The notes beneath the pieces were generated by a model, which had not been told where the DNA came from, made no database searches, and saw only the letters and a list, made by a program, of their open reading frames with translations. From Acetobacteraceae bacterium (GTDB lineage Bacteria > Pseudomonadota > Alphaproteobacteria > Acetobacterales > Acetobacteraceae), in contig OZ240673.1 of the NCBI GenBank assembly GCA_965198755.1, positions 3,145,044 to 3,209,043 of the forward strand: DNA of 64,000 nt, in the 5' to 3' direction. Shown here piece after piece: positions 13,505 through 48,454 of this stretch; position 1 is the first letter of the stretch; each line of letters opens with the position of its first letter. The translations under genes and the position numbers were made by a program.

Positions 13505-13553
13505 GAAGCAAGCAAGGCCTTCTTTTTTGAAAAAAAGAAGCAAAAAACTTTTG
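13505..13553 (+). repeat. Palindromic element half copy E6 (GAAGC arm only)
   Basis: gaagcaagcaaggccttcttttttgaaaaaaagaagcaaaaaacttttg. Confidence 0.85.
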
Positions 13554-13567
13554 ATTTCTGGGCTTGG

Positions 13568-13614: not shown

Positions 13615-13689
13615 GGCGACGTAGCTCAGCGGTAGAGCAGGGGAATCATAATCCCTTGGTCGGGTGTTCAAGTCACCCCGTCGCTACCA
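13615..13689 (+). tRNA. tRNA-Met(CAT), elongator type
   Basis: Cloverleaf: acceptor GGCGACG/CGTCGCT, anticodon loop ATCATAA, T-arm GGGTG-TTCAAGT-CACCC, encoded CCA. Confidence 0.93.
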
Positions 13690-13709: not shown

Positions 13710-13836
13710 AAGCAAGCAAGCGGTTCTTTTTTGAAAAGAGAACCAAAAACTTTGTTTCCTGGGTAGCCGCTGCCGGGGGTTGCGCGACAGCAGGGAAAGA
13801 GTTTTCGCCGCTATTTTCGGAAACGCATGCCTTGCC
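13710..13836 (-). repeat. Palindromic element E7 (right arm eroded)
   Basis: GAACC arm, CGCGACAG, degenerate right arm. Confidence 0.75.
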
Positions 13837-13947
13837 CTCTTCGCTAGGAACTGAGGAAATCGTATCCAGGTTACCTGGTGTCATCTCGCTCGCCGACCGG
13901 GACTGAACAGGCAACGCACAAGCCCTGCCAAGCCAAGGACGCCCACC

Positions 13948-14421: not shown

Positions 14422-14945
14422 CGCCCACCGCGCTCACTGCACGGGCAGCAAGGTCTCTCCGTCGTGCGGCGTCTGACCCATCCAAGCAGGCTCGCCTTGT
14501 CAGCCCCCGGCGCACACCGGGTGAAGCGGGTGGTTCGTCTCGGCTTGCCGAGAGCGGTTGAGCTTGCAGGCAACGTTGTCTCTGCCGCTCTCGCCGGGGC
14601 GGCGCGTCGGCGGGTGGGTGTTCCCAGCATCTAACGACCTGCCCAAGCCCAGGTCCGGACCTGCACGCCGCGGCGCTGCGGTCCGTCAAGGTTGCAACCG
14701 GCCGCGTCCAGCAGCCGGTCTGACGCAGCAGGCCCTGACCGCCCACCCTGGCCTGCCGATGCGCACACCAACATGCTATCAGCGCCCACAGGCGCGGCAC
14801 CGCCGCCCTCCCAGGAACCCGCCCGCTTCTGTGCAAACGCGCTTTCCGCCCCAGTTTCCGAGACAACGCTCACAAGGGTAGCCATGCACCACAAGGCTCA
14901 CGGCCAAGCCTACCTGCAGCCCCGTTCGCCGGGTCAGCCCCGCCG

Positions 14946-16439
14946 ATGAACGACCTCGCCGGCGTCGCCCAGGCCTTTCAGGACAGCCTGCCCCGCGGTG
15001 CCGAGGTGATCGTCTCGCGCATCGACAGCCTGGACCGCATCGGCGTCCCCGTGGTCCAGGCCGTGCTGCTGGGCCCCGACAGCCCTGCGCTGTCCGGCTA
15101 CGGCTACGGCGTGACCGAGCTGGAGGCACGCGTCGGCGCACTCGGCGAGCTGTGCGAGGAAGCCCATGTCGGCGCCACCATCGCCGCCGCCCCGCAGACC
15201 CTCGCCAGCTATGCAGCCCTGGCCGCGCGCCTGGGCGAACACGCGGTGCTCGACCCGCTGACGCTGTGCCTGCCGGCCGGCTCGGCCTACACGCCCGACA
15301 TGCCGCTCTCCTGGGTCGCCGGCCAGCGCTGGCCGGACGCAGCACCGGTGATGGTGCCGGCCGAGTGGGTGGCGGCGCACCCCTACCAGCTCGCCGCGCC
15401 GGCGCGGCTGATCACGCCCATCACCAACGGCCTGGGCGCCGGCTTCGACCTGCCACACGCTTTGGCGCACGCCTTGATGGAGCTGCTGCAGCGCGACGGC
15501 AACAGCCTCACCTACCGCGCGCTGGACCAGGGCGTGGTGGTCGACCTGCCGCAAGGCGCGCTCGGCGACGTCGACGACCTGCTGGCTCGCCTGCACGCGC
15601 TCGGCATCCGCCCGGTCGTCAAGCTGGCCGACACCAGCTTCGGACTCTCCAACCTCTATGTCATGGGCGATGATGACGGCCCGGCCCACTTCACCCTGCA
15701 GCTCAGCGCCTGCGGCGAGGCGTCCCATCCGGACCGCGCCCGGGCCCTGCGCAAGGCGCTGCTGGAATACATCGGCTCGCGCTCCCGCAAAGCGGCGACG
15801 CACGGTCCGGTGGAGACGGCGCGGCGCGTGCTGCCGCCGGCCTACCTGGCCCGCCTGCTCGCCGTCCCGCCGGCCGCCGAAGAGCCGCGCGCGCTGCAGG
15901 CGATGGCCGAGTGGCTGGGGCTGGACGCGGCAGCCTTGCGCCAGCTGCTGGCCGGCCCGGTGCAGCGCCGCACGCGCGGCATCTCGTTTGCCGACCTGCC
16001 CGACGCACCGGCGGCCGACGTCGCCACCTCCTCCGCCCGGCTCGACTATCTGGCGACCCGGCTGGCGGAAGCCGGGCTCGGCATCGTCTGGGTGGATTGC
16101 TCGCCGGCAGACGGGCCGGTGCGCGTGGTGCGCGCCATCGTGCCGGGACTGGAGAGCGAAACCATGAGCTACCACCGCCTCGGCCGGCGCGGGGTCGCCA
16201 GGCTGCGCGCCCGCCGCGACCCGCTGCTGCTCGACGCACCTCGCGACGGCGCCCTGCGCGTGCGCCTGCGCCCCGAGGACGAGGCAGCCTGCGGCGGGCC
16301 AGCCTGGTTCGACGCGGCACTCGCAGCACGGCTGACCGATCCGCTCTACCCGCTGTATCGTGAATGCGGGCCGTTCGCCGCACAGCGGCTGCTGGCCGGA
16401 AGCCGGCTTCATCGGGCGGATGCTGAAGCTGCGTGCTAG
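14946..16439 (+). CDS. YcaO-like protein (paralogue 1)
   Basis: LDRIGVP, GYG..E..EE, PITNGLGAG, HALMELLQRD, HPDRARALRKALLE, IVPGLE. Confidence 0.85.
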   Translation: MNDLAGVAQAFQDSLPRGAEVIVSRIDSLDRIGVPVVQAVLLGPDSPALSGYGYGVTELEARVGALGELCEEAHVGATIAAAPQTLASYAALAARLGEHAVLDPLTLCLPAGSAYTPDMPLSWVAGQRWPDAAPVMVPAEWVAAHPYQLAAPARLITPITNGLGAGFDLPHALAHALMELLQRDGNSLTYRALDQGVVVDLPQGALGDVDDLLARLHALGIRPVVKLADTSFGLSNLYVMGDDDGPAHFTLQLSACGEASHPDRARALRKALLEYIGSRSRKAATHGPVETARRVLPPAYLARLLAVPPAAEEPRALQAMAEWLGLDAAALRQLLAGPVQRRTRGISFADLPDAPAADVATSSARLDYLATRLAEAGLGIVWVDCSPADGPVRVVRAIVPGLESETMSYHRLGRRGVARLRARRDPLLLDAPRDGALRVRLRPEDEAACGGPAWFDAALAARLTDPLYPLYRECGPFAAQRLLAGSRLHRADAEAAC

Positions 16440-16468
16440 GGGCGTTCGGCTTGCAGTGGCTTCGACCA

Positions 16469-16620
16469 GGCAAGGCAAGCAGTTCTTTTTTGAAAAAAAG
16501 AACCAAAAAACTTTTGTCTCTCTCGGGTGTGCCGTGGTGAGACGCCTTGTTTCAGCCGTCCGCGACAGCGCGCCCAAAAGCTTTTTGCTTCTTTTTCTCG
16601 AAAAAGAAGGCGCTTGCTTT
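16469..16620 (-). repeat. Palindromic element E8
   Basis: Full copy with TGTTTCAGCCGTCCGCGACAG spacer. Confidence 0.95.
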
Positions 16621-16678
16621 CTACTGAGGCGGCGGTCGCAATTGAGAGCGTCTTTCGACTTGCCCGCCCAGTGCACCC

Positions 16679-18445
16679 ATGTCGCGTGACGTTCTGAAGC
16701 GCCCGCCGGCGCACGGCCAGGATGGTGCGGACGGACATCGTCGGCATCGTTCAGCCCATCCGGGTGAGCGCGAACTGGCCGAGCGTGTGGGCTTGCGCCG
16801 GGCCGTGCTGCTTGCGCTGATGCTGGGGGTGGCCGCTTGCCTCGTCTGGCTGGGCGCCGCCGTGCTGGCCCCAGGCGGCTGGACCGCCCTGAAGCTGGCG
16901 CTGCTGCTGTGCCTGGCAGCAAACGCGCCGTGGCTGGGCCTGTCGGCGGCAACTGGGCTGATCGGCTTCTGCGTGCGCATCGGCGCGCGCGACTCCGCCT
17001 GCGCGGTGTTCCCGGCGCTGCGCCTGGTGCGGCCGGACCAGGCGGTCACGTTGCGGACCGCAATCGCCGTCTGCGTGCGCGACGAGGCGGTTGCACCCGT
17101 TTTCGCCAGGCTGGCGCAACTCGGCGCCGATATCGACCATGCCGGGCTGTCCGGCCGCTTCTCGCTGTGCGTGCTGTCCGACACCGCAAGCGACGCGCTG
17201 GCGGAGTCGGAGACCCGCGAAGCCGCTTGCCTGCGCGCTGCGTGCGCCACGCCCGTTCTGTACCGCCGGCGTGCGGCCAACACCGGCTTCAAGGCCGGCA
17301 ACGTGATGTCCTTCCTGGACGAGCACGCGGGCGCCTTCGACCTGCTGGTCTGCCTGGACGCCGACAGCGAGATGACCGCACCCGCCATCCTGCGCCTGGT
17401 GCGGGTGATGCAGGCCGACCCGCGTCTGGCCATCGTGCAGGCCACCTTCCACGGCCAGCCGGCCAGCGCCCTGTTCCCCCGCCTATTCCAGTTCGGCCAG
17501 TTGCAGGGCCTGCGCATCTGGGCGGTGGGGCAGGCCTGGTGGCAGGCCGATAGCGGCCCTTACTGGGGGCACAACGCCGTCGTCCGCGTGGCACCGTTCC
17601 GTGCGCATTGCCGGCTATCCCCGTTGCCGGACGGTGCGGCCATCATGTCGCACGACCACGTGGAGGCCGCGCTGCTGCAGGGTGCCGGCTGGCGCCTGCG
17701 CGTGCTGGCCTGCGACGAGGGCTCGTCCGAAGCCCAGCCGCCGACGCTGCCCGACTACCTCGTCCGCGACCGCCGCTGGGCCGCCGGCAACCTGCAGTAT
17801 CGCTTCCTGCTGCGCCGGCGCGAACTCGGCCGTCTGGGCCGGCTGCAGATGCTTCAGGCAATCCTGCACTATGCGCTGACGCCACTGTGGTTCGCGATGC
17901 TGCCGTTGGCGGCGTTAAACGCCGCCACTGGGGGCGCGGCCCAACTCCGCTGGGGGCGCCTGCTGACCCTGCTGGCGTTCGGCTGGCTGACGCTGCACGC
18001 GCCCAAGCTGCTCGGCATGCTGGAACTGCTGTTGCGCCCCGCGGTCGCCTCGCGTTTTGGCGGCCGGGCTTGCGTGTTGCGCCTGGCCGCGTCCGAGCTG
18101 GTGTTCGCCCAGCTGTTCGATCCCATCATCGCGCTGCACAAGACAGCCGGCGTGCTGCGCCTGGCCGCCGGAGCACCCGGCAGCTGGACCGGGCAGACCC
18201 GCGACGAGCACGCGATCGGCTGGTCGCGCGCTGCAGGGATGTTCTGGCCGCATACGTTGGCGGGCATCGCGCTCGCGGCGGTGTTCGCGGCCGCATCACC
18301 TGCGGCATTGCTGGTTTGTCTGCCGGCGGTGGCGGGATTGATGCTCGCCATACCGTTTGCGGTGTTTTCATCGAAGCAAAGCAAGGCTCTCTTTTTCGAA
18401 AAAAAGAAGCAAAAAACGTTTGGCCGCGCTGTCGCGGACGGCTGA
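16679..18445 (+). CDS. mdoH: Glucan biosynthesis glucosyltransferase MdoH/OpgH-type (GT2); C-terminus derived from element E9
   Basis: GFKAGN, LDADSEM, YWGHNA, SHDHVEA, RDRRWAAGNLQY. Confidence 0.88.
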   Translation: MSRDVLKRPPAHGQDGADGHRRHRSAHPGERELAERVGLRRAVLLALMLGVAACLVWLGAAVLAPGGWTALKLALLLCLAANAPWLGLSAATGLIGFCVRIGARDSACAVFPALRLVRPDQAVTLRTAIAVCVRDEAVAPVFARLAQLGADIDHAGLSGRFSLCVLSDTASDALAESETREAACLRAACATPVLYRRRAANTGFKAGNVMSFLDEHAGAFDLLVCLDADSEMTAPAILRLVRVMQADPRLAIVQATFHGQPASALFPRLFQFGQLQGLRIWAVGQAWWQADSGPYWGHNAVVRVAPFRAHCRLSPLPDGAAIMSHDHVEAALLQGAGWRLRVLACDEGSSEAQPPTLPDYLVRDRRWAAGNLQYRFLLRRRELGRLGRLQMLQAILHYALTPLWFAMLPLAALNAATGGAAQLRWGRLLTLLAFGWLTLHAPKLLGMLELLLRPAVASRFGGRACVLRLAASELVFAQLFDPIIALHKTAGVLRLAAGAPGSWTGQTRDEHAIGWSRAAGMFWPHTLAGIALAAVFAAASPAALLVCLPAVAGLMLAIPFAVFSSKQSKALFFEKKKQKTFGRAVADG

Positions 18446-18512
18446 GACAGCCCGCAACCCAGAGAACAAAAGTCTTTTGCTTCTTTTTTTTCAAAAAAGA
18501 AGGCCTTGCCTT
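18374..18512 (+). repeat. Palindromic element E9, overlapping the mdoH 3' end
   Basis: Two GAAGC-type arms; mdoH stop lies in the spacer. Confidence 0.95.
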
Positions 18513-18625
18513 ACTTTACTAGCGTTTCCGTGAGCGGCAGCCTCCCGGGTTTACACCGCGATGCCGAACCCCATGTGGCCCACACCCGGGCGGTCGGCGT
18601 CCGGGCGGGTTAGGGATGAAAACGC

Positions 18626-19831
18626 ATGCCGGATTTGGGCGTCAGCGAGTCCAACGCAGGACGCCGCCTTGGCGTGCTCGTGGTCGGCGTGGGCGGCGCG
18701 GTCGCCACCACGGCGGTCGCCGGCATCGAGCTACTACGCCGTGGGTCGAACGACTTCGCCGGACTGCCGTTGGCCGACGCCGACGTGCCTGGCCTAGCCG
18801 CCTACCGCAACATGCATTTCGCCGGCTGGGACCTCAACGCCGACGACCTGAGCCACGCAGCCCAGGGCCACCGGGTGCTGGAAGCCGAGCAGGCGAGCCT
18901 GGTGGCCGGCGAGCTCTCGCGCATCCGGCCGTGGCCCGCCGTCGGCAGCACCGATTTTTGCGCCAACGTGGACGGCGCCAACAAGGTGGTCGCCGGCAGC
19001 CACCGCGGCGCCGTCGAGCGCATCCGTCAGGACATCCGCGACTACAAGCAATCCACCGGCATCAGCGACGTGGTGATGATCAACCTCGCCTCCGTGGAAC
19101 GCTGGCCGGCCGACACCGCCGTGCTGGAGGAGGTCGAAGCCTTCGAGCGCGGGCTGGACGACAACAACCCCTCGATCAGCCCGGCGATGCTGTACGCCTA
19201 CGCGTCGATCACCGAGGGCGTGCCCTACGGCAACTTCACCCCGAGCCTGGCCGCCGACATCCCCGCGCTGGTCGCACTCTCCGCCGAGCGCAACGTGCCG
19301 GTAGCCGGCAAGGACGGCAAGACGGGGCAGACGTTCCTCAAGACCGTGCTGGCGCCAGCGCTGCGCGCGCGCTCGCTGTTCGTGGAAGGCTGGTTCAGCA
19401 CCAACATCCTTGGAAACCGCGACGGCCTGGCGCTGGACAACGCCGCCAGCCTGCAGAGCAAGCTCGCCACCAAGGGGTCCGTGCTGGACAACATCCTCGG
19501 CTACAAGGTGGAAAACCACCTGGTGAACATCCAGTACTACAAGCCGCGCGGCGACAACAAGGAAGCCTGGGACAACATCGACATCGTCGGCTTCCTCGGC
19601 CAGAAGATGCAGATCAAGCTGAACTTCCTTTGCCGCGACAGCATCCTGGCCGCCCCGCTGGTGATCGAGATCGCCCGTGTCCTGGACCTCGCACGCCGCC
19701 GCGGCCATGGCGGCATCCAGGAGCAGCTCGGCCTGTTCTTCAAGGCGCCGATGACGCCGGCCGGGTGTCGCGAGGAGCACTCCTTCCCCGTGCAGCAGCA
19801 GGTCCTGCTCGACTGGCTGGTGGCCGCCTAG
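18626..19831 (+). CDS. ino1: Inositol-3-phosphate synthase
   Basis: Rossmann VVGVGGAVA, NFTPS, GKDGKTGQT, NILGNRDG, DNKEAWD, RDSILAAPL. Confidence 0.95.
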   Translation: MPDLGVSESNAGRRLGVLVVGVGGAVATTAVAGIELLRRGSNDFAGLPLADADVPGLAAYRNMHFAGWDLNADDLSHAAQGHRVLEAEQASLVAGELSRIRPWPAVGSTDFCANVDGANKVVAGSHRGAVERIRQDIRDYKQSTGISDVVMINLASVERWPADTAVLEEVEAFERGLDDNNPSISPAMLYAYASITEGVPYGNFTPSLAADIPALVALSAERNVPVAGKDGKTGQTFLKTVLAPALRARSLFVEGWFSTNILGNRDGLALDNAASLQSKLATKGSVLDNILGYKVENHLVNIQYYKPRGDNKEAWDNIDIVGFLGQKMQIKLNFLCRDSILAAPLVIEIARVLDLARRRGHGGIQEQLGLFFKAPMTPAGCREEHSFPVQQQVLLDWLVAA

Positions 19832-19845
19832 GCGCGGTCCGGCCG

Positions 19846-20901
19846 ATGGACAGCCTGCCACCGGTACGGTCAGCGGAGCCCGCCGACCTTGCCGGGATTG
19901 CCTCGCTGGCGGCCGAGCTGGCGACGCTGAAGCGCATCCGCGACGCGCGATCCCCCGAAAGCCTCGCCTCGCTGATGTTTCGGCGCGCCTGGGTAGCGCT
20001 TTGTGCCGGTGTGGCGGTGCGCGACGTGGCGCTGTCCGTCTCCGCCGAGGCGCTGGTCGCGCTTCGCTTGGGCGGCATTGACCGTGCGGTGCTGGTCACG
20101 TCCGGGCTATCGGCCGACGAGGCAGCCGAGGTGCAGACGGCCTCGTTCGACCAGGTGACTGGGAGTATCCTGGCCGGCCAGGATAGGGGTGCGACGGCCG
20201 CCAGCCTGGTCGACGAACTGCGTCGGCGCGTCGGTGGTGAGCAGAGTCGACCCGTCGCTACCGAGCAAGTTCAGCGCGTCCACGCCGAGGACGATCGGCA
20301 TCTCGGCGCCGGGCAAGATCAGCGCGGCGGCGCCGAGCAAGCTGCAGCGGCCCCTGTACCCGCCTTTGTCGAAGCGCTGATCCGCCAGCCGCGCGCCGGC
20401 GCCACCTGCCCCGGCAAGCCGCGCCTGATCCTGGAGCCGCCGGAGGGCCACGGCGACCACTGCCTCGCCGTCGCCGTGCTGGGCGTCGTGCTGTGCGCCG
20501 AGTACGGCGCCGACCCCGCGCCCGTATTCCTCGCCGGCCTCGCTCACCACCTGCACAACGCCACCCTGCCCGACGCCGGGTTCGCCGGCGAGGTGCTGCT
20601 CGGCACCCACCTGATCCCGGTCCTGCGCCGCCTGACCGACCAGGCCCTGGCCACCCTGCCGGCCGGGCTTGCCGCCCACACGCGCGACGCGCTCGCCCTG
20701 GCGGCCGATGCCGGGACGCCGGAGGGGCGCGCCTTCAACGCCGCCGACGTGATCGACCGCATCATGGAGGTGCGCCACTTCGCCGCCGTCGCCGGCTTCA
20801 CCGAGGCGCAGGCGACTGACGACATGGAGCTGGTCCACGCCGGCCCGCTGCAGGATTTCCACTACCAGGTGATGCGCCGCGCAGGGCTGCTACCGGCGTG
20901 A
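19846..20901 (+). CDS. HD-fold (YfbR-like) phosphohydrolase-type protein, apparently duplicated domain
   Basis: QPRAG...EGHGDHCLAVAV...AGLAHHLHNA...FNAADVIDR resembles HD-domain His/Asp spacing; N-half ELATLKRIRDA looks like a degenerate copy. Confidence 0.55.
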   Translation: MDSLPPVRSAEPADLAGIASLAAELATLKRIRDARSPESLASLMFRRAWVALCAGVAVRDVALSVSAEALVALRLGGIDRAVLVTSGLSADEAAEVQTASFDQVTGSILAGQDRGATAASLVDELRRRVGGEQSRPVATEQVQRVHAEDDRHLGAGQDQRGGAEQAAAAPVPAFVEALIRQPRAGATCPGKPRLILEPPEGHGDHCLAVAVLGVVLCAEYGADPAPVFLAGLAHHLHNATLPDAGFAGEVLLGTHLIPVLRRLTDQALATLPAGLAAHTRDALALAADAGTPEGRAFNAADVIDRIMEVRHFAAVAGFTEAQATDDMELVHAGPLQDFHYQVMRRAGLLPA

Positions 20902-22214
20902 CCAGCCCGCCCCCAAACCTGCGCAGCCCGGCAACCGGCGCCGTGCTCACCGCCGGACCGCACGACCTGCACGCCGCCGGCGAGCGCTGGCCGGTGGTGG
21001 ACGGCATCGCCTTCCTGCGCGCCGACCGCCGCGCGCTGGCCGACGCGGCACTGGCCGCGCTGGATGCCGGCGACGCCGAGACCGCCTGTGTCATCCTGCT
21101 GGCGGACCAGGACGGCTGGGCCAGCACGCCACCGCCGGACGAAGCCGCCCGCCGCTTCGCGGTGCGCGAGCGCGCCGCGCTCAGCTTCCGCGCCGCCATG
21201 GATGTGCTGGCGTTCGGGCCGGTGGCCACCTACTTCGCGCACCGCTGGTCCGACCCCACCTTCCTCTCCGGCCTGGCTTTGGCCGAGGCGCACTGGCACG
21301 CGCCGGACCGCATCGTCGAGCTGGCCTGCGGTGCCGGCCACTACCTGCGCGAGTTCGCCCGCGTGCGGCCGCAGGCCGAGATCACCGGCGGCGACCTGGT
21401 GTTCGCCAAGCTGTGGCTGGCGCGGCACTTCGTGGCACCGCAGGCAAAGCTGCTGTGCTTCGACGCGGCGCAGCCCTGGCCGTTACCGGACGCGTCGGCT
21501 GACCTCGTGTTCTGCCACGATGCTTTCTATTTTCTGCCGGATAAGCAGCGTGTGGCGGGGGAGATGCTGCGGGTGGCCGGCGGGCAGGAAGCAAGCGCTT
21601 CTTTTTCGAGAAAAAGAAGCAAAAAGCTTTTGTCTCGGCTATCGCGGACGGCTGAAACGACACGCCTTCCCAACGCGCACCCCCAGGAGCAAAAGTTTTT
21701 TGGTTCTTTTTTTCAAAAAAGAACTGCTTGCCTTGCTTCCGGCCGCATCCTCGTCGGACACGCCCACAACGCCGCCGTGGAAAACCTTTCCCACGGCGCG
21801 CCCCTGCTCCCCGAAGACTACGCAGCGCTATTTGGGCAGGCATTGCTGTACGACGACCGCGAACTGACCACCGCGCTCGCCGAAGCACGCGCCCCGCACC
21901 CGGCAGACGCCGCCAACCTGCAACAGGCGCCAGCCGTGGCGCTGGCGGCCGGTGCGGCTGCAGCCGACGTGCCACGCATGCTGACCGGCGGGCTGGCGAT
22001 GCCGCAGCCGGGGCGGCAGCTGATGCGCAACCCGCTCTATGCCGAAGGCGCGGGCACGTTGCGCTTCCCCTCGCCGCGCTACGAGGCGGAATATGCGTCC
22101 CTGGCCACCTATCGCCCAACCACCGACGCGCCCGCCCGCGCAGTGGCCGGCGACCCGGCGCTGGAGGGCGCCATCCGCCGGCGCGAGCTTCTCGACCTGC
22201 CGGCCGAATGGTGA
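20898..22214 (+). CDS. Class I SAM-dependent methyltransferase with Trm112-like N-terminus and a 52-aa in-frame element insertion
   Basis: LRSPATG...WPVVDGIAFL N-terminus; VELACGAGH motif I; GDL; FCHDAFYF; GTGA overlap with the upstream gene. Confidence 0.85.
   Translation: MTSPPPNLRSPATGAVLTAGPHDLHAAGERWPVVDGIAFLRADRRALADAALAALDAGDAETACVILLADQDGWASTPPPDEAARRFAVRERAALSFRAAMDVLAFGPVATYFAHRWSDPTFLSGLALAEAHWHAPDRIVELACGAGHYLREFARVRPQAEITGGDLVFAKLWLARHFVAPQAKLLCFDAAQPWPLPDASADLVFCHDAFYFLPDKQRVAGEMLRVAGGQEASASFSRKRSKKLLSRLSRTAETTRLPNAHPQEQKFFGSFFQKRTACLASGRILVGHAHNAAVENLSHGAPLLPEDYAALFGQALLYDDRELTTALAEARAPHPADAANLQQAPAVALAAGAAAADVPRMLTGGLAMPQPGRQLMRNPLYAEGAGTLRFPSPRYEAEYASLATYRPTTDAPARAVAGDPALEGAIRRRELLDLPAEW
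21587..21740 (+). repeat. Palindromic element E10, inserted in frame within the methyltransferase
   Basis: Terminal GGAAGCAAG...CTTGCTTCC; reading frame stays open across it. Confidence 0.95.
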
Positions 22215-23281
22215 GCACCGGCGCGCGCCTGGGCTGGGGCATTGCCGGGTGCGGCTGGGTGGCGCGCGACTACGCGGTGCCGGCCATCCGCAAGTCCTCC
22301 AACGGCACCCTGCTGGCGGTGCACGACCAATCCGACGCGGCGCTGGACCGGGCACGGCGGGAATTGGTCGGTGTCGCCTGCCACGCCAGCCTGGACGACT
22401 TTCTGGCTACGCCCGGCCTGCAGGCGGTCTACGTCGCCACGCCCAACCACGCCCACCGCGCGCTGGCCGAACGCGTCGCCGCCGCCGGCCTCGCCGTGCT
22501 GTGCGAGAAGCCGATGGCCACCACGCTGGCGGAGGCTACCCGCATGGTGCGTGCCTGCACCGATGCCGGGGTGCGCTACGCCACCGCCTTCGACCAGCGC
22601 TTCCACCCGGCGCATCGCCACCTGGCGCGCCTGGTGGCGGACGGCGCCATCGGGCGGCCGACCGCCATCCGCATCGTCTACGCCTGCTGGGTGGACGATT
22701 GTTGGGCGCCCGACGCGGTGAGCACCGACAACTGGCGCACCGACCCGGAGCGTGCCGGCGGCGGCGCGCTGTTCGACCTGGCGCCGCACGGGCTGGACCT
22801 CGCCGCGATGATCCTGGGCGAGCGCATCGAGGCCGTCGCCGCCATGGGCCAGTCGCGCGTGCACGGCTACGCCTCGCGCGGGGTGGAGGGGCGCGGCGTG
22901 GAAGATGGGGCGCTGCTGATGGCGCGCTCGGCCTCCGGCGTGCTGCTGCAGATGCACGTGGCCTACAACTGCCCGGAGACGCTGCCGCGCCGCCGGCTGG
23001 AAGTGCTGGGAACGGCGGGGCAGATCGTCGCTACGGACACGATGGGGCAGACGCCGGGCGGCACTTTGGTTTTAACGGATGCGGCGGACGGCGTGGCCCG
23101 TCAGGTGGACGTGCCGGACGCGGAGCGGGCGCCGTTTCTCGGCCAGATGGAGGCGTTTGCCGCCTGCGTGCTGGAGGGTGCGGCGTTTGCGTTCACACCG
23201 GAGCATGATTTGCACACGATGGCGCTTCTGGAGCGTGCGCAGGCAATGGTGGTGGCGACGTTAAAGCGACTGTTTGTCTGA
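22208..23281 (+). CDS. Gfo/Idh/MocA family NAD(P)-dependent oxidoreductase
   Basis: GIAGCGWVA, VATPNHAH, CEKPMA, GGGALFDLAPHGLD. Confidence 0.93.
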   Translation: MVSTGARLGWGIAGCGWVARDYAVPAIRKSSNGTLLAVHDQSDAALDRARRELVGVACHASLDDFLATPGLQAVYVATPNHAHRALAERVAAAGLAVLCEKPMATTLAEATRMVRACTDAGVRYATAFDQRFHPAHRHLARLVADGAIGRPTAIRIVYACWVDDCWAPDAVSTDNWRTDPERAGGGALFDLAPHGLDLAAMILGERIEAVAAMGQSRVHGYASRGVEGRGVEDGALLMARSASGVLLQMHVAYNCPETLPRRRLEVLGTAGQIVATDTMGQTPGGTLVLTDAADGVARQVDVPDAERAPFLGQMEAFAACVLEGAAFAFTPEHDLHTMALLERAQAMVVATLKRLFV

Positions 23282-23393
23282 AACAAAAGAAACAATGCCA
23301 CGTTCACTCCAAAATCCGGCAATCCAGTCCGTCGACTTGCGAGTCATGCTGATGACCTCCGGGCCATCCGCCGGCTTCTCAAGTGACGCCCGT

Positions 23394-23498
23394 AAAGAAA
23401 GCTATTGGTGGCGCTATCGCGGAGTTTCCGGCAGCGCGCGCCCAAGAGAACAAAAGTTTTTTGGTTCTTTTTTTCAAAAAAGAACCGCTTGCTTCCTT
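23394..23498 (+). repeat. Palindromic element E11 (left arm eroded)
   Basis: CTATCGCGGAGTTTCC spacer + intact GAACC arm. Confidence 0.85.
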
Positions 23499-23509
23499 CG
23501 GGTCAGTTC

Positions 23510-24334
23510 ATGCCCCTAACCCCCTTTGCCTGCAGCAACTGCGGCCACTGGCAGCGCTACTTCGCCACCCCGCCGCTCTGCCCTATCTGTTCCGACGTGC
23601 GCAACGATTTGCCGGAGGACGGCTGGGACTTTCGCACGCCGGAGCAGCTGATCCCCACGTTGCAGTTCCACTGGCGCGAGGCGATCCCCGGCGTGTGGGA
23701 GTTCTGGTCCACGCCGCGGTTCGGCCTGGACAGCCACGGCTGGCTGCTGTTGCACGAGTTGGGCAACGTCGCGTTCGAGGCAGCGCCGATCTACAACGAT
23801 GCCCAACTGGCGCAGATACGCGCGCTCGGCGGCATACGGTTTCTGGCGGCGTCGCATCCGCACGGTTACGGCGCGCTGTTCCAGTTGCAGGAGGTGTTCC
23901 AGCCGGAAGCGTTGCTGATCCAGAAGGACGACCTGGACTGGACCAAGGCGTTCCGGGTGACGCTGCCTTACGACGAGACGTTCGAGATCTATACAGGCCT
24001 GACCTTGCACCACGTTGGCGGCCACTATGCCGGGCAGGCGGTGTTGCACGACGCGGAGCGGCGCGCGGTGTTCGCCGGCGACAGCCTGAAGATCGATTTC
24101 GATGCGGCGGGCGAGGCGCAAGGCATTTCCTGCCACAAGGCTTACCACAAGCAGATCCCGCTCTCGCGCGACGAGGCGCGCCGTTACCGCAGCGTCTACG
24201 AGCGGCTGGACTTCACGTCGGTGTTCACCCCGTTCGAGATGGCGACCGACACCGGCACGGCGGCCGCAGTAGCGCTGCTCGACCAGGTGATCGAAGGCCC
24301 GCCGTCCACCAAGCCGATCCCGATCCGCCGATGA
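23510..24334 (+). CDS. MBL-fold metallo-hydrolase-like protein with N-terminal CxxC...CxxC Zn-ribbon
   Basis: CSNCG...CPICSD; ASHPHGYG; GGHYAG; FAGDS. Confidence 0.75.
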   Translation: MPLTPFACSNCGHWQRYFATPPLCPICSDVRNDLPEDGWDFRTPEQLIPTLQFHWREAIPGVWEFWSTPRFGLDSHGWLLLHELGNVAFEAAPIYNDAQLAQIRALGGIRFLAASHPHGYGALFQLQEVFQPEALLIQKDDLDWTKAFRVTLPYDETFEIYTGLTLHHVGGHYAGQAVLHDAERRAVFAGDSLKIDFDAAGEAQGISCHKAYHKQIPLSRDEARRYRSVYERLDFTSVFTPFEMATDTGTAAAVALLDQVIEGPPSTKPIPIRR

Positions 24335-25824
24335 CCCGCGCGATGCCCGAGGCCGCCCGCGCCTACCTCGATTCCATGCCGGCGGGGAGCGTGGACCTGT
24401 TCCCGCTGACCCCGCTGGACCGCACCGGCGTGCCCTGCTGGAACGCGGTGTTCCACGACGCGGCCGCGCAGGCCTGGGTGGGCGTCGCACCGCATGGCGT
24501 CGGCTACGGCAGCACCGACGATGAGGCGATCGTGGGGACCACCGGCGAGCTGGCCGAGGCCATCCACTCGGCGGCGGGCATCTGGCGGCTGGAGCGGCGG
24601 CGGGGCAGCACCACGGACCTGGTGCGCAGCCTGGGTGCCGACGCGGTGGCCGACCCGCTGACCCTGTGCCTGCCGGCCGGGTGCGCGGTGGATGCGGACA
24701 CCGCGCTGGAGTGGGTGCCGACGCGCCGCTACCGCGATGGCGCGACGGTCTGGCTGCCGATCGACATCGCGGCGTGTTCCTACGGCGACCTCTCGCCCGG
24801 CTACACGGCGTTCACCAGCCCGATCACCAACGGGCTGGGTGCAGGGCCGAGCCTGGACTTCGCCATCGGCCACGGGTTGTGCGAGCTGTTCCAGCGCGAC
24901 GGCAACGGGCTGGGCTTCCGCGCCATGGACCGCGGCATCCTGCTGGAGTTCGGCCCCGATTTTCCGCGCGACCCGCGCACCCGCGCGCTGCTGGCGCATC
25001 TGCGCAGTCTGGGCATCGAGGTGCTGGCCAAGTTCGCCGACGACGCGTTCGGCATCGCCAACGTCTACTGCGTCGGCGGCGAGACGGACCGGTCTGCCGC
25101 AGCACCCATCATGGTCACCGCCGCCGGCGAGGCCGCCTCGCCCGACCGCGAGCACGCGCTGCGCAAGGCGGTGCTGGAGTTCGCCGCCGCGCGCGCCCGC
25201 AAGGCGTTCAGCCACGGCGCGCTGGCCGAAGCCGCCCGCGTGGCGCCGGCGCGCTACCTCGAAAGTTTCCGCGCCCGCCAGACGCTGGACGGCGAGGAGG
25301 ACCGCACGATGGCGGCGATGCGCGACTGGCTCGGCCGCGACCAGGCCAGCCTGCGCGCCCTGCTGGCAGACAGCGCGCTGTCCCGCCGCGAGACCAAGCG
25401 CTTCGACGAGCTGCCGCAATGGGACGGCGCACTGTCCGGCACAGCGCTGGTAGCCGAACTGCACCGCCGCCTGGCCGCGCACGGGATGGACGTGCTGGTG
25501 CTGGACTACTCCCCGCCGGACCACCCGGACGTGCACGTGGTGAAAGTGGTGGTGCCAGGGCTGGAGGTAGAGACGATGAGCTATCACCGCATCGGCGAGC
25601 GTGGCGTGCGCAAGCTGCTGGACCGCGGATCGGACCTGGTGGGTTTCGGCCCGCCGCCGCCGGGCGCGCTGCCGGTGCGCCTGCCCGCCGGTGCGGCCGA
25701 GCGGCTGGGCGGCGTGCCGTGGCTCGACGTGGCCGGGGTGGACCGCATCGTGGGCCCGCTCTACCCGCTCTACCGCGAGCCCGAGGTGCACGCGGCGCAG
25801 ATTGCCCTGGAGGCGGTAGCGTGA
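24331..25824 (+). CDS. YcaO-like protein (paralogue 2)
   Basis: LDRTGVP, GVGYG, PITNGLGAG, HGLCELFQRD, RKAVLE, VVPGLE; ATGA overlap with the MBL gene. Confidence 0.85.
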   Translation: MTRAMPEAARAYLDSMPAGSVDLFPLTPLDRTGVPCWNAVFHDAAAQAWVGVAPHGVGYGSTDDEAIVGTTGELAEAIHSAAGIWRLERRRGSTTDLVRSLGADAVADPLTLCLPAGCAVDADTALEWVPTRRYRDGATVWLPIDIAACSYGDLSPGYTAFTSPITNGLGAGPSLDFAIGHGLCELFQRDGNGLGFRAMDRGILLEFGPDFPRDPRTRALLAHLRSLGIEVLAKFADDAFGIANVYCVGGETDRSAAAPIMVTAAGEAASPDREHALRKAVLEFAAARARKAFSHGALAEAARVAPARYLESFRARQTLDGEEDRTMAAMRDWLGRDQASLRALLADSALSRRETKRFDELPQWDGALSGTALVAELHRRLAAHGMDVLVLDYSPPDHPDVHVVKVVVPGLEVETMSYHRIGERGVRKLLDRGSDLVGFGPPPPGALPVRLPAGAAERLGGVPWLDVAGVDRIVGPLYPLYREPEVHAAQIALEAVA

Positions 25825-25854
25825 GGTTCGCCCGGCGGCCCGTGTTGACGAGTA

Positions 25855-25992
25855 GCAAGCAAGGCAAGCAGTTCTTTTTTGAAAAAAAGAACCAAAAAAC
25901 TTTTGTTCCCTTGGGTGCGCGTTGCAGGAAACTCCGCGACAGCAGGGATAAAAGTTTTTTGCTGCTTTTTTTCAAAAAAGCAGGCCTTCCCT
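25855..25992 (-). repeat. Palindromic element E12
   Basis: Full copy; right arm has compensatory GCTGC/GCAG variant. Confidence 0.95.
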
Positions 25993-26137
25993 TTCTTCTA
26001 GAGCATCAACCAACCTTACGGGGCTGCCCGTCGGATGCAGATGCTCGTCAACGGAGGGCGCTGCCGCGTTTTCCGGTCTGCTTGTCCAATTCAACGAGGT
26101 CAGAAAACACTCTAGCGTGTCGGCTTGCCGCGGAGGC

Positions 26138-26962
26138 ATGGGCTTGAGGTTCGCCTACAACACCAACGGCACCGCCAACCACCGGCTGGACGAGGCGATC
26201 GCGCTGATCGCCGACGCCGGCTACGACGGCGTGGCGCTGACTCTCGACATCCACCACCTCGACCCGTTCGCGGGCTTTCGCGCCGAGCTGCGCCGCGTCG
26301 CCGCTCTTCTGCGCGCCCATAGCCTAGGCTGCGTCATCGAGACCGGCGCGCGCTTCCTGCTCGACCCGCGGCAAAAGCACGAGCCTACCCTGGTGACCGC
26401 GGACAGTGAGGGCCGCGCGCGCCGCGTGGCTTTCCTGACCCGCGCGCTGGAAGCGGCCGCTGAGACCGGCGCCGAGGCGATGTCTTTCTGGGCCGGCGTG
26501 CCGAAACCGGGCGTGACCGCGGCGCAGGCGCGCGATTGGGTGGCCGAGGGCGCGGCCGAAATTGCCCGGCGTGCCGAACAGCTCGGGACTGTCGCCGCGC
26601 TTGAGCCGGAACCGGGCATGGCGATCGAGACCGCGGCAGACTGGCAGGCGCTGGCGATCCCCGGCCTGCGCCTGGCGCTGGACACCGGGCACTGCCTGGT
26701 CACCGGCGAGATGGACCCCGCGGACGCGGTGCGCCAGTACGCAAGCGACCTCGGCACCGTGTCGATCGAGGACATGGCGCGCGGCGTGCACGTGCATTTG
26801 CCGTTCGGCGAGGGGGACATGGACCTGCCTGGCGTGCTCGCGGCGTTGCATGAGGTGCGCTTCACCGGCCTGGTCTGCGTGGAGCTGTCGCGGGAGAGCC
26901 ACCGGGCGGACACGATGGTGCCGGGTGCGTTGGCGTGGCTGCGGGATCGGGTGGCGTCCTGA
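26138..26962 (+). CDS. Sugar phosphate isomerase/epimerase (AP endonuclease 2 TIM barrel)
   Basis: GGAGG RBS; AYNTNG, LEPEPGM, LDTGH, IEDM, HLPFGEGD, VELSR. Confidence 0.9.
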   Translation: MGLRFAYNTNGTANHRLDEAIALIADAGYDGVALTLDIHHLDPFAGFRAELRRVAALLRAHSLGCVIETGARFLLDPRQKHEPTLVTADSEGRARRVAFLTRALEAAAETGAEAMSFWAGVPKPGVTAAQARDWVAEGAAEIARRAEQLGTVAALEPEPGMAIETAADWQALAIPGLRLALDTGHCLVTGEMDPADAVRQYASDLGTVSIEDMARGVHVHLPFGEGDMDLPGVLAALHEVRFTGLVCVELSRESHRADTMVPGALAWLRDRVAS

Positions 26963-26966
26963 TGCG

Positions 26967-27100
26967 AAGCAAGACCTTCTTTTCTGAAGAAAAGAAGCAA
27001 AAGACTTTTGCTTCCGCTGTCGCGGACTCTCCCACGAGCGCGCGGCAGCGGAAACAAAAGTTTTTTGGTTCTTTTTTTCAAAAAAGAACTGCTTGCCTGC
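26967..27100 (+). repeat. Palindromic element E13
   Basis: Full copy between the TIM-barrel and GT4 genes. Confidence 0.95.
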
Positions 27101-27104
27101 CTTC

Positions 27105-28322
27105 ATGAGGATCTGTTTCGTCAGCCGCCGCTACTTCCCGGCGATCTCCGGCATGAGCGTCTACGCGCAGAACCTGCTCCGCGAACTCGCCAGCGCCGGC
27201 CACGACGTAACGATGATCAGCCAATACCGCGGCGACGATTACGGCCGCGCCGTCTACGGCGGCGGCCCGCCCCCCGCGGTGCCCGGCGTGCGCGTCTTCG
27301 GCCTGGAGCAGCTCGGCGAGCAGTCGACCGGCGACTTCGAGCGTGACGTCGCCGTGATGGTGGAGGCGATCTGCGCCGAACACACGCGCGCGCCGTTCGA
27401 CGTGCTGCACGCGCAATACGGCTACCCGACCGGCTGGGCGGTCATGCTGGCGGCCCGGCGGCTGGGGCTGCCGAGCGTGGTCTCCATCCAGGGCGGCGAC
27501 GGGCACTGGGTGGGCTCGTGTTGCGAGACGCACCGCCTGGCGATGATACGCGTGCTGGACCACGCGGGCGCGGTGCTGATCGGCTGCCGCTCGTTTGCAG
27601 AGGAGGTGTGCGGGCGGCTGGGCACCGATCCTGGACGCTTCACCATCGTGCCGGGCGCGGTGGAGACCGACCGATTCACCCCGGCCGCCCGGCCGGTGGG
27701 CGCCGCGCCGGTGCTGCTGTATCACGGCCGGATCGACGCGCGGAAAGGTGCGCTGGACCTGCTGGACGCGGCCAGGCTGCTCGCCGACGAGGGCGCGGCC
27801 TTTTCACTGGTGTATTCGGGCATCGGCCCGGATCACGGGCGCGTCGCGGCGCGCATCACCGAACTGGGCCTGGGCGGGCGCGTGCGGATGACCGGCTACG
27901 TCAACTACGCGGACGTGCCGGCGGTGTATCACCAGGCGGACGTGTTCGTTTCGCCCACCTATGCCGAGGGGTTCTCCAACACCATCCTCGAAGCGATGGC
28001 ATCCGGCCTGGCCTGCGTCTCCTGCCGCGTCGTGGGCGTCATGGACTGCCTGCGGGACGGCGAGAACGGGCTGCTGAACGAGCCGGGCGACATACCCGCC
28101 TTGGCCGCCTCGCTGCGCCGGCTGCTGGCTGAGCCGGACCTGCGGCGCCGGCTGGCGCAGGCGGGGCTGGAGGAGTGCCGGCGCCTCTACTCGTGGCCGG
28201 CGGTCGGGCGGCAGATCATGCAGGTCTACGCCGACACGGTGCGGCGAGCGCCGGACCTGGGCTTCTCCACCGAGCTGCCGATGACGCCGTGCCGTTTCCG
28301 GGCGGACCCGCACCTCCTGTGA
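27105..28322 (+). CDS. GT4 family glycosyltransferase
   Basis: HAQYG, GRIDARKG, EGFSNTILEAMASG. Confidence 0.93.
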   Translation: MRICFVSRRYFPAISGMSVYAQNLLRELASAGHDVTMISQYRGDDYGRAVYGGGPPPAVPGVRVFGLEQLGEQSTGDFERDVAVMVEAICAEHTRAPFDVLHAQYGYPTGWAVMLAARRLGLPSVVSIQGGDGHWVGSCCETHRLAMIRVLDHAGAVLIGCRSFAEEVCGRLGTDPGRFTIVPGAVETDRFTPAARPVGAAPVLLYHGRIDARKGALDLLDAARLLADEGAAFSLVYSGIGPDHGRVAARITELGLGGRVRMTGYVNYADVPAVYHQADVFVSPTYAEGFSNTILEAMASGLACVSCRVVGVMDCLRDGENGLLNEPGDIPALAASLRRLLAEPDLRRRLAQAGLEECRRLYSWPAVGRQIMQVYADTVRRAPDLGFSTELPMTPCRFRADPHLL

Positions 28323-29071
28323 CGCGCACGGCGCTGTTCCTCTCGCCGCACCTGGACGACGTAGTGTTTTCCTGCGGCGGCCTGGCCGCGGTGCTGCACG
28401 ACCGCGGCTGGCGCACGGTGCTGGCGACCGCGTTCACCGCGACCGTGACGCCCGTCACCGGCTTCGCGCTCGCCTGCCAGCTCGACAAGGGGTTGCCCGC
28501 GGAGACCGATTACATGGCCCTGCGCCGCGCCGAAGACCACGCGGCCGCGGCCATCCTTGGGTTCACCGACGTGCGCCACCTCGGCCTGCCCGAAGCACCG
28601 CATCGTGGTTACGACAGCGCGCGCGCCCTGTTCGGCGGCGTCCGCGACGACGACATCATCGTGCAGGCGCTCGCGGCACACCTGACGGCGCTGCAAAGCG
28701 AATTCGCGCCGAACCTTGTGCTGGCTCCACAGGGTTTGGGCAGCCACGTCGACCACCGGCAGGTGGTGCGCGCAATCACCGAAACGGTGGACGCGCCGCT
28801 CGCCTGGTACCGCGACACGCCTTACGCGATGCGCCACCAGGACGCGCCGCCGCCGCACGTGGCTCGGCTTGCGGAGATGCGGTTTCCGGTCGGCAGCGCG
28901 TTGGACCGCAAGCTGCGTGCCGCCTGCGCCTACGTCAGCCAAGTCGGTTTCCAGTTCGGCGGGCCCGAACAGACACAAACCGCATTGCGCGCGTTCGCTG
29001 CCGCTGAAGCCGGAGGTGGCGGGTTTGCAGAACGACTGGCCGTGTCGGTCGGGGCGGACGGTTCACTTTGA
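28319..29071 (+). CDS. PIG-L family deacetylase
   Basis: SPHLDDVVFSCGG, RRAED, SHVDH; GTGA overlap with GT4. Confidence 0.92.
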   Translation: MTRTALFLSPHLDDVVFSCGGLAAVLHDRGWRTVLATAFTATVTPVTGFALACQLDKGLPAETDYMALRRAEDHAAAAILGFTDVRHLGLPEAPHRGYDSARALFGGVRDDDIIVQALAAHLTALQSEFAPNLVLAPQGLGSHVDHRQVVRAITETVDAPLAWYRDTPYAMRHQDAPPPHVARLAEMRFPVGSALDRKLRAACAYVSQVGFQFGGPEQTQTALRAFAAAEAGGGGFAERLAVSVGADGSL

Positions 29072-29108
29072 GCCGGTTGGTTGGTTTGACTGTTTGTGTT
29101 GATCGGGG

Positions 29109-29156
29109 AGCAAGGTAAGCAGTTCTTTTTTGAAAAAAAGAACCAAAAAACTTTTG
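29109..29156 (-). repeat. Palindromic element half copy E14a (GAACC arm)
   Basis: gcaaggtaagcagttcttttttgaaaaaaagaaccaaaaaacttttg. Confidence 0.85.
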
Positions 29157-29308
29157 CTCCCGTACAGTGCGTGCTGATGGAAAGGTGTCGTTTAATCAGT
29201 GGCGGCGCGCACGTGCGCATTTGGCGCGCACGCAGATCTCTAATGCTTTGCAGCATGGTGTAGCAGCGGCGCAGGTCTGACCTTGCAAGTGCAGCAAACG
29301 CAATGCCT

Positions 29309-29415
29309 GCATAAAAACGTCTGTCCCTGCTGTCGCGCTAGCTCCAACAACGCGCACCTGAGGGAACAAAAGTTTTTTGGTTCTTTTTCTCAAAAAAGAA
29401 CCGCTTGCCTTGCTT
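29309..29415 (+). repeat. Palindromic element E14b (left arm eroded)
   Basis: CTGTCGCG + intact GAACC arm. Confidence 0.85.
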
Positions 29416-29445
29416 GTCACCGGTCGCGATCTCGCCCCACTGACG

Positions 29446-29832
29446 TCAGGCGACGACACGCGCCAGCATTGGCCCCAGCGGCCCCCCGCCGAAGATATGG
29501 ACGTGGAAGTGCGGCACCTCCTGATGTGCATCGTGTCCCATGTTGGCCAGGATGCGGTAGCCTGGGTCTTCAAGCCCCAGGTCGCGCGCGACCGCAGCGA
29601 CCGCGCGGAAGAAGCCCGCAACCGTTTCAGGCGGCGCATGCGCGGCGAAGTCCGCCAGCGACACGTGCCGTGTCTTCGGGATCACCAGCACGTGCACCGG
29701 CGCCTGCGGGTTGATGTCGTGGAACGCGAGCGCGTGCTCGTCCTCATACACACGCCGGCTCGGGATTTCGCCGCGCAGGATGCGCGCGAAGATGTTGGAG
29801 TCGTCGTAAGGACCTAGACCCGGGACAGGCAT
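29446..29832 (-). CDS. hinT: Histidine triad (HIT) nucleotide-binding protein
   Basis: NIFARILRGEIP, DINPQAPVHVLVIPK, QEVPHFHVHIFGG. Confidence 0.95.
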   Translation of the reverse strand: MPVPGLGPYDDSNIFARILRGEIPSRRVYEDEHALAFHDINPQAPVHVLVIPKTRHVSLADFAAHAPPETVAGFFRAVAAVARDLGLEDPGYRILANMGHDAHQEVPHFHVHIFGGGPLGPMLARVVA

Positions 29833-29923
29833 TGCTCAGCTCCTACAGGGACCATTACAAATCTTCTTTTGCACGCTTGGGCCTTAGAGTGCGGGCCGGC
29901 TTTGACTCGCTTTCGGACAAGAG

Positions 29924-30075
29924 AAAGCAAGGCAAGCAGTTCTTTTTGAAAAAAAGAACCAAAAAACTTTTGTTCCCTTGGGGCGCGCGTTGGTGAGACG
30001 TGTCGTTTCAGCCGCCCGCGACAACCGGGACAAAAGCTTTTTGCTTCTTTTTCTCGAAAAAGAAGGCCTTGCTTC
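29924..30075 (-). repeat. Palindromic element E15
   Basis: Full copy, CGTGTCGTTTCAGCC spacer. Confidence 0.95.
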
Positions 30076-30110
30076 TACTCGCTAAAAAACAACCAAGCAT
30101 GCCCAGGCTC

Positions 30111-35563: not shown

Positions 35564-35589
35564 ATCCCTCGGTGGCGTCGTTGACGCAT

Positions 35590-36325: not shown

Positions 36326-36680
36326 GCTTCTTCTTTGGAGAAGAAAGCGGTGCAGGTCCCGGCGCGGCCGCCTTCTTCGCTGCGACCCGACGACGGCTGC
36401 ATTCTCCGGCTTTCTTCGATGTCGGCTTTTCGTTCGGCCGTTCGGCCTGCTCAAGGCTTGCGCAGCGACCGCCGCAGGCGGCTCGGCCTTGAACAGGCTG
36501 GACGGCCGAGCGACGATCGCGAGTCGAAGGGAGCTTCCACGTGGGTCAAGACGCGCCCAACGTGGGCTCGGATCCGCCGCTCAAAACATTTGTGTGCTTG
36601 CTCTTGCAAACCCATCCGGAGACGGATGCCAAAAAGACCGAAGCTATGTTAGTTCTTGCTCCAGATACCAACCATTTGCC

Positions 36681-39862: not shown

Positions 39863-39870
39863 GATCGGTG

Positions 39871-48433: not shown

Positions 48434-48454
48434 CGACGGAGACCTACCAGAAGG

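Follow-up and report, generated by a model that had tools for sequence, protein, structure and literature searches.

We analyzed a 64,000-nt stretch of contig OZ240673.1 (positions 3,145,044 to 3,209,043 of the forward strand) from the Acetobacteraceae bacterium assembly GCA_965198755.1, referred to here as the window and numbered from its first nucleotide, in which a gene for a class I S-adenosylmethionine (SAM)-dependent methyltransferase is interrupted in frame by a copy of a palindromic repeat. The gene (20898 to 22214, forward strand) was delimited as an open reading frame (ORF) of 438 aa, and its product was characterized with Pfam, AlphaFold2, and Foldseek. A small β domain at the N terminus is followed by a Rossmann-like methyltransferase core and then by a C-terminal extension. 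Residues 137 to 227 matched the Pfam profiles Methyltransf_11 (46.4 bits; cutoff, 21.2), Methyltransf_25 (43.5 bits; cutoff, 27), and Methyltransf_31 (31.7 bits; cutoff, 27), and the glycine-rich motif I reads VELACGAGH (residues 139 to 147). The AlphaFold2 model, for which a 25-sequence alignment served as input, had a mean predicted local distance difference test (pLDDT) value of 83 and a predicted template modeling (pTM) score of 0.84, with pLDDT values of >90 in the methyltransferase core. Foldseek matched this model with a probability of 1.00 to the class I methyltransferases RlmA(I), AtmM, RebM, DnrK, and YcgJ, and a search of 5.8 billion proteins returned ca. 1300 homologues of the host protein. 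On the grounds of both the profile matches and the predicted Rossmann-like fold, we assign the host gene to the class I SAM methyltransferases.

The insert spans 156 nt (21585 to 21740, forward strand), that is, 52 codons (residues 230 to 281), and these limits, first given in a preliminary description of the window, proved exact. Its peptide (QEAS...CLAS) separates EMLRVAGG from GRILVGH while the ORF stays open, and it contains 11 Lys/Arg residues versus 3 Glu residues, giving a net charge of +8. Within the insert, the G+C content drops to ca. 50%, versus 67% for the window. The split falls in Kagan-Clarke motif III (LRVAGG/GRILV), at the loop between helix αD and strand β5. In the AlphaFold2 model, helix αD (residues 216 to 227) is followed by residues 234 to 279 with pLDDT values of <50 and then by strand β5 (residues 283 to 290). 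Deleting the 52 residues in silico increased the score of Methyltransf_31 from 31.7 to 36.1 bits and that of Methyltransf_23 from 17.2 to 20.8 bits, and both profiles then extended across the junction. Together, the predicted order of helix, insert, and strand and the rejoined profiles confirm the placement in the loop before β5 that had been read from the motif. Thus, as modeled, the insert occupies a loop that the fold can accommodate, and the segment is disordered or of low confidence. In the class I methyltransferase fold, the helix-to-strand loops lie on the sheet face opposite the SAM site. A disordered loop would plausibly be tolerated at this position because the αD-β5 loop faces away from the SAM pocket. 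The peptides predicted to span the junctions of the insert-bearing protein are VAGGQEASASFSR and TACLASGR.

As DNA, the insert belongs to a repeat family (nhmmer E value of 1e-44; nhmmer locus 21589 to 21735). When the insert was used to start an iterated nhmmer search, 36 loci were found in the window, amounting to 4,147 nt (6.5% of the sequence, or ca. 1 copy per 1.8 kb). The insert has the long (ca. 150-nt) form of the repeat. The left terminal inverted repeat (GGAAGCAAG, 21588 to 21596) is complementary to the right one (CTTGCTTCC, 21732 to 21740). Between them are a left local hairpin with T5 and A5 tracts (CTTCTTTTT-CGAG-AAAAAGAAG, 21598 to 21619), a left small palindrome (CAAAAAGCTTTTG, 21620 to 21632), a variable G+C-rich center that begins with GCTATCGCGGACGGCTGAAACGACACG and, in an alignment of 21 copies, includes the ca. 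15-nt piece marking the long form (21633 to 21689), a right small palindrome with A4 and T6 (CAAAAGTTTTTTG, 21690 to 21702), and a right local hairpin with T7 and A6 (GTTCTTTTTTT-C-AAAAAAGAAC, 21703 to 21724), which is the part deleted in frame (30 nt) in the related locus L002. The longest homopolymers are the T6 (21696 to 21701), T7 (21707 to 21713), and A6 (21715 to 21720) tracts, as previously noted, and the left arm carries T5, A5, A5, and T4. RNA folding of the 176-nt stretch containing the insert (21575 to 21750) predicted a long hairpin with a free energy of −84 kcal/mol (z = −7.2 relative to dinucleotide shuffles). A promoter and terminator consensus scan of the insert found none.

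In order to establish whether the segment was gained or lost, it was traced among orthologues. All but three of the best 120 homologues were 348 to 409 aa long, and the segment is missing from more than 110 of them. In the 25-sequence alignment, the segment was present only in P0001 (99.5% identical, from a sister strain), P0002, and P0003 (87%), and the segment-free sequences read RVAG-x-GRVLVGH. A scan of one genome per species provided 80 loci, with record labels that were almost all lichen-derived or uncultured Acetobacteraceae or Rhodospirillales, and among these, the longer gene was found only in L006 (85% identity). According to the DNA alignment, the window, the sister strain L206, L001, L002, and L006 share both the position and the orientation of the insert, and the site is cleanly empty in L004, L007, and L009. 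Given the identical site and orientation in all carriers and the empty site in the outer relatives, the comparison identifies the insertion as derived and as having occurred once, in an ancestor shared by a small clade, in agreement with the earlier proposal that the segment had interrupted an older gene, since distant orthologues lack it. Because short-read contigs break within this highly repeated sequence, misjoins are conceivable in principle. However, five assemblies obtained independently, with different samples and assemblers, contain the insertion, and in four public runs, contigs span both junctions with zero mismatches. An assembly artifact is excluded as the source of the insertion, and the broader alternative that the locus is either such an artifact or a pseudogene is extremely improbable. 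The nearest insert-free orthologue (L004, 2687 to 3871) has five extra residues, GGTAS, at the exact insertion loop. These are unlikely to be an excision scar, as no copy of the repeat occurs in 13.9 kb of L004, where the genes still adjoin one another.

We then looked at selection on the two parts of the gene. Among the four insert-bearing orthologues, the ratio of nonsynonymous to synonymous substitution rates (dN/dS) of the flanking codons was 0.13 to 0.17, at dS values of 0.36 to 0.53. These values show that the gene is alive and was kept under purifying selection long after the insertion, so that decay is excluded. The insert has no stop codon in any lineage, and its length has changed only by +3 nt (L001 and L006) and by −30 nt, or 10 codons (L002, where the right hairpin module was lost). 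In contrast, 11 of the 14 internal indels in orthologous intergenic copies of the same genomes were not multiples of three. Therefore, the frame of the insert has been selected. In the sister strain, which differs from the window by 305 substitutions in 21.3 kb, the insert has two substitutions and no indel. The dN/dS ratio of the insert itself was 0.36 to 0.85, which points to a peptide that is only weakly constrained.

A stop-free insert whose length remains a multiple of three is the pattern predicted by translation through it, and as judged from the alignments and the structural model, the segment is most likely translated, forming a disordered and basic (+8) loop at a permissive site. The pattern would be needless if the insert were removed from the RNA. 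A protein without the insert could in principle be produced by intron-like excision or by translational bypass, and the very stable hairpin, which brings the ends of the insert together, would favor either route. Neither of them, however, needs a multiple-of-three length or a stop-free frame, yet both hold in all lineages, and an Rfam search of the insert matched no known ribozyme or intron family. We regard such posttranscriptional removal or skipping as highly improbable.

The preliminary description had also suggested that slippage in the T6, T7, and A6 tracts could switch the enzyme off and on, at high frequency if the gene were a phase-variable locus. The homopolymer tracts are certainly there, and their lengths vary among copies of the repeat, as had been stated (e.g., T8 in the copy at 18481 to 18512). 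Tract lengths even change between intergenic copies of the window and those of L206, only 1.4% apart, at 18484, 25966, and 29145 (T8/T7, a TTT deletion, and one A, respectively). Nevertheless, the frame of the methyltransferase is kept in five lineages spanning dS values of up to ca. 0.5. When tract lengths were compared across the five assembled genomes, at the contig level (Logan contigs for the public runs), those of the insert were either of the same length or interrupted by substitutions (TTTTTC and TTTTCTT in L001), with no length change. Thus, slippage does happen in the family, but the gene either shows none or does not tolerate it. The longest tract of the insert is 7 nt, and known contingency loci generally have A/T tracts of at least 9 nt. 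Along similar lines, the strong purifying selection on the flanks is atypical of a locus that is often off. The proposed on/off switch was not borne out by these comparisons, and we consider it very unlikely.

Next, we characterized the repeat family as a whole. The 21 full-length copies of the window measure 133 to 165 nt and fall into a short form (ca. 133 to 143 nt) and a long form (ca. 150 to 165 nt), which their alignment distinguishes by the internal piece of ca. 15 nt, GGCTGAAACGACACG, and the methyltransferase copy is of the latter type. Examples of other loci are 4033 to 4165, 6549 to 6681, 25859 to 25993, 52771 to 52902, and 60319 to 60463. The consensus reads AAGCAAG(G/C) - CTTCT6-G-A7GAAG - CAAAAAACTTTTG - variable G+C-rich center - CAAAAGTTTTTTG - GTTCT7-C-A6GAAC - (T/C)GCTTGC(C)TT. 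Covariation was evaluated in 86 nonidentical full-length copies, taken from the window and from related loci. The termini (AAGCAAG...CTTGCTT) were paired in 85% of cells. The closing pair of the left 22-nt hairpin was C-G in 42 copies and G-C in 34 (paired in 79 of 85), and that of the right 22-nt hairpin was G-C in 61 and C-G in 20 (paired in 83 of 84). In contrast, pairing from arm to arm at the same closing positions gave C·C or G·G mismatches and was found in only 18 of 85. As the local closing pairs covary and the long-range pairs mismatch, the unit consists of two inverted hairpin modules plus terminal inverted repeats, and on this comparative evidence its conserved units are the local hairpins, as in repetitive extragenic palindromic (REP) elements.

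With its terminal inverted repeats, small size, and lack of a transposase in the unit, the repeat also has features of a miniature inverted-repeat transposable element (MITE). A target-site duplication was looked for in the 21 copies, and no consistent flanking direct repeat was found, although the copies are old and a short duplication may have decayed. The GGCCG that flanks the methyltransferase copy was ruled out as such a duplication, as its removal would break the frame. No transposase appeared among the part of the window genes scanned with Pfam, and no search aimed at REP-associated tyrosine transposases (RAYT) was made. The repeat matched no Rfam family, the hit to the MIR2646 microRNA precursor being subthreshold (31.5 bits versus a gathering cutoff of 245) and a generic match to a long hairpin. 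A literature search found no paper describing the element, and the family appears to be undescribed. Regarding its coding capacity, the repeat averaged 4.8 stop codons over its six frames versus 7.1 in dinucleotide shuffles. Since this depletion is modest and the copies share ancestry and are not independent, we make no claim of selection for coding capacity. Among the 21 full-length copies, the frame used by the insert was open in 16, and 10 had a length divisible by three. Over all six frames, about half of the readings were open. From these counts, roughly one-quarter of insertions into a gene would keep the ORF.

We also examined where the other copies are located. By a gene model based on codon usage, 35 of the 36 loci of the window are intergenic or clip gene ends, and only 21589 to 21735 lies in the middle of a gene. 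The intergenic copies occupy tandem, convergent, and divergent spacers, often 0 to 8 nt past a stop codon. One example is a partial sibling copy (23397 to 23494) just downstream of the next gene of the operon. Another sibling copy (18377 to 18512) provides the last ca. 21 codons and the stop codon of a glycosyltransferase family 2 (GT2) gene (16787 to 18445). This element-coded tail is also found in L001 and L206, and that of L002 differs.

An exact-match scan of JGI metagenome contigs with a 35-nt core retrieved 120 loci (626 kb) with 215 copies. A search for open frames that continue through a copy and have coding potential on either flank recovered only the methyltransferase event, which was seen in L001, L002, L006, and the window, and none of the 215 metagenome copies lay in mid-gene. 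Six further copies with coding-like tight flanks (at 48452 in the window and in L106, L105, L159, L139, L195, and L042) were all classified as intergenic: the stop codon of the upstream gene falls at the repeat or just within it, and the following gene begins shortly beyond it. Among proteins, a HMMER profile of the element-encoded peptide gave 518 matches (E value of ≤0.001) in 1.84 billion representative proteins, a search that misses insertions if the cluster representative lacks the insert, as is the case for the methyltransferase itself. The best 150 of these 518 matches were mostly ORFs of <120 aa. Ten longer matches scanned with Pfam had no domain (P0170, P0171, P0172, P0177, P0197, P0209, P0213, P0233, P0246, and P0285). 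These ten, together with P0174, P0184, P0189, P0299, and P0251, were rejected as further internal insertions, most of them having the appearance of high-G+C DNA translated out of frame. P0177 and P0233 are exceptions, in that they resemble genuine proteins whose C-terminal tail is encoded by the element. A word-index protein search with the 52-aa insert recovered only “hypothetical proteins” of 41 to 90 aa and missed even the methyltransferases, so it is uninformative about long proteins. As a side observation, hundreds of database “hypothetical proteins” of 40 to 110 aa (P0121 to P0306) are translations of the repeat, that is, annotation noise from its open frames.

In total, the search for other in-frame copies that the preliminary description had recommended yielded no second mid-gene event, neither among ca. 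238 copies in ca. 0.7 Mb nor in the profile search of 1.84 billion proteins. Judging from these counts, the rate of in-frame, mid-gene copies of the family is below 1%, and such insertions are not a family habit.

Taking these data together, we think it likely that a repeat of ca. 150 nt was inserted once and has persisted as a tolerated passenger loop, of the type known from Rickettsia palindromic elements (RPEs) and enterobacterial repetitive intergenic consensus (ERIC) elements, and not as a switch. The proposed sequence of events is as follows. An AT-rich palindromic repeat, made up of two inverted 22-nt hairpin modules, terminal inverted repeats, and a variable center, was amplified to ca. 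1 copy per 1.8 kb in a lichen-associated lineage of Acetobacteraceae and was inserted once into the αD-β5 loop in the ancestor of the small clade. As its length was a multiple of three (156 to 159 nt) and its frame was free of stops, the ribosome would read through it. The enzyme would thereby have gained a strongly basic, probably disordered loop of 52 residues on the sheet face opposite the SAM site, where it could be tolerated, and purifying selection on the enzyme has since kept the insert in frame, with the peptide weakly constrained. We infer that the insert is translated and tolerated and has no function of its own.

Some points weigh against this explanation. The case for translation is an indirect one, from the comparison of sequences. 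The p-distance of the insert (0.09 to 0.14) is lower than that at third codon positions (0.26 to 0.29), which is not predicted for a pure passenger. Finally, a hairpin of ca. −65 kcal/mol within the mRNA may affect expression. As an alternative, the insert may have been exapted, having acquired a function of its own either as protein (a basic loop binding a partner, the membrane, or nucleic acids) or as an RNA or DNA hairpin for processing or stability of the operon mRNA, as in REP or Correia elements. In favor of exaptation, each of the five lineages retains the insert, its substitutions have accumulated at about half the rate seen at third codon positions and in nonrepeat intergenic DNA, its hairpin potential is kept in three lineages (−58 to −65 kcal/mol), and in L006, one pair of changes is compensatory for the long hairpin. 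However, seemingly compensatory changes also arise in quasipalindromes by template switching, without selection, and mismatches without compensation are present in the local hairpins of the insert in L001, L002, and L006. In L002, 10 codons and the entire right hairpin module are gone, and the gene remains under selection. The dN/dS values of the insert given above argue in the same direction.

The intergenic copies, moreover, are equally slow. All nine copies of the operon (window positions 14900 to 30100) have positional counterparts in L001, L002, and, as far as its locus extends, L006, among them the partial copy at 23397, and their p-distances to the window are mostly 0.10 to 0.20. For comparison, third codon positions of the neighboring genes gave mostly 0.13 to 0.30 (range, 0.09 to 0.34), and nonrepeat intergenic DNA gave 0.24 to 0.27 with many gaps. 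As the slow rate is common to the intergenic copies, it is not specific to the methyltransferase copy, and it suggests either a nucleotide-level constraint on the whole family or gene conversion. We therefore find exaptation of this particular copy unlikely. A related possibility is that the family as a whole is a selectively maintained genomic module and that the methyltransferase copy still does the job of the family in the operon, the 52-residue loop being accepted as a price or exapted. The conservation of orthologous positions, a rate about half of the neutral one, and the covarying 22-nt hairpins all favor it, and the job might be that of a site for RNA processing or stability or for protein binding. 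We hold this version to be improbable as well, to about the same degree as exaptation, and the tolerated passenger remains our preferred explanation.

We compared the repeat with known systems by description. The similarity to RPEs, put forward in the preliminary description, holds for the mechanism of insertion: a palindromic repeat of ca. 150 nt lies in frame in an unrelated metabolic gene, at a site compatible with the fold, and has been retained across species. The family is, as RPEs are, a palindrome of ca. 100 to 150 bp with an open frame (open in 16 of the 21 copies). RPE-like behavior of the whole family did not hold up, given one event per ca. 238 copies. Nearly half of the RPEs of three families are in frame within genes (PMC10969869, summarizing Ogata et al. 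2000, 2002), whereas here the in-frame intragenic copy is exceptional. The host also differs, being a free-living or lichen-associated member of the Acetobacteraceae with 67% G+C and not Rickettsia.

The ERIC and RU-1, RU-2, and RU-3 elements are likewise mainly intergenic, MITE-like repeats of 100 to 170 bp with open frames and occasional gene fusions, including terminal ones (Delihas 2007, PMC2759123), for which the C terminus of the GT2 gene provided by the copy at 18377 to 18512 is a counterpart. They belong, however, to another sequence family and host clade, and the density found here (6.5% of the window) is far higher. With REP elements and bacterial interspersed mosaic elements (BIMEs), the family shares covarying 22-nt hairpin modules, arranged as inverted pairs around a variable center, a location mostly just downstream of genes, and a very high copy number. 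REP elements and BIMEs have a conserved GTAG or CGTC head adjoining the palindrome (PMC3733652). Unlike them, the consensus here (AAGCAAGCAC-TTCTTTTTTGAAAAAAAGAAG-CAAAAAACTTTTG) has no GTAG or CGTC head, its stems are almost pure A/T, and the unit also has terminal inverted repeats. On balance, its organization appears to resemble a REP pair or BIME as much as a MITE. Correia elements are similar in size (ca. 100 to 155 bp), in their terminal inverted repeats, in having long and short forms distinguished by an internal segment, in their intergenic abundance, and in forming mRNA hairpins. Those of Neisseria have a TA target duplication and promoter and integration host factor (IHF) sites. In contrast, no target duplication or promoter-like site was found in the repeat described here.

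The methyltransferase gene belongs to a cluster that starts with genes for YcaO, the GT2 glycosyltransferase, myo-inositol-1-phosphate synthase, a protein of unknown type, the methyltransferase, and a GFO/IDH/MocA oxidoreductase and continues with a metallo-β-lactamase-fold match (weak and below threshold), a second YcaO, a xylose-isomerase-like TIM barrel, a glycosyltransferase family 4 (GT4) protein, and a PIG-L deacetylase. The cluster is an inositol-related biosynthetic operon. In the repeat-free relative L004, the genes of the cluster overlap or abut, and in the repeat-rich clade, copies of the repeat take up the space between genes. The two YcaO paralogues (14946 to 16439 and 24331 to 25824; 497 aa each) account for the direct repeats 15468 to 15544/24871 to 24947 and 15703 to 15813/25115 to 25225. 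Elsewhere in the window, a tRNA gene (13615 to 13686) lies between repeat copies at 13510 to 13560 and 13714 to 13837, and direct repeats with a 15-nt period (1761 to 2144, with units such as GCGAACAGCGACAGG) overlap the start of a long ORF. The longest repeat-free stretch (35582 to 43989; 8.4 kb) contains the conserved genes mnmE, mnmG, parA, and parB, and the cumulative GC skew peaks near 40 to 42 kb of the window. The chromosome replication origin may be close to this stretch.

The locus indicates that the RPE-style addition of protein segments also operates in a high-G+C environmental alphaproteobacterium, and here the age of the insert, the selection on its frame, and its structural position can all be read from comparative data. 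It amounts to a natural experiment on the tolerance of a Rossmann-fold methyltransferase at motif III. Beyond this gene, an apparently undescribed repeat family makes up several percent of the genome in lichen- and moss-associated Acetobacteraceae, where it breaks short-read assemblies.

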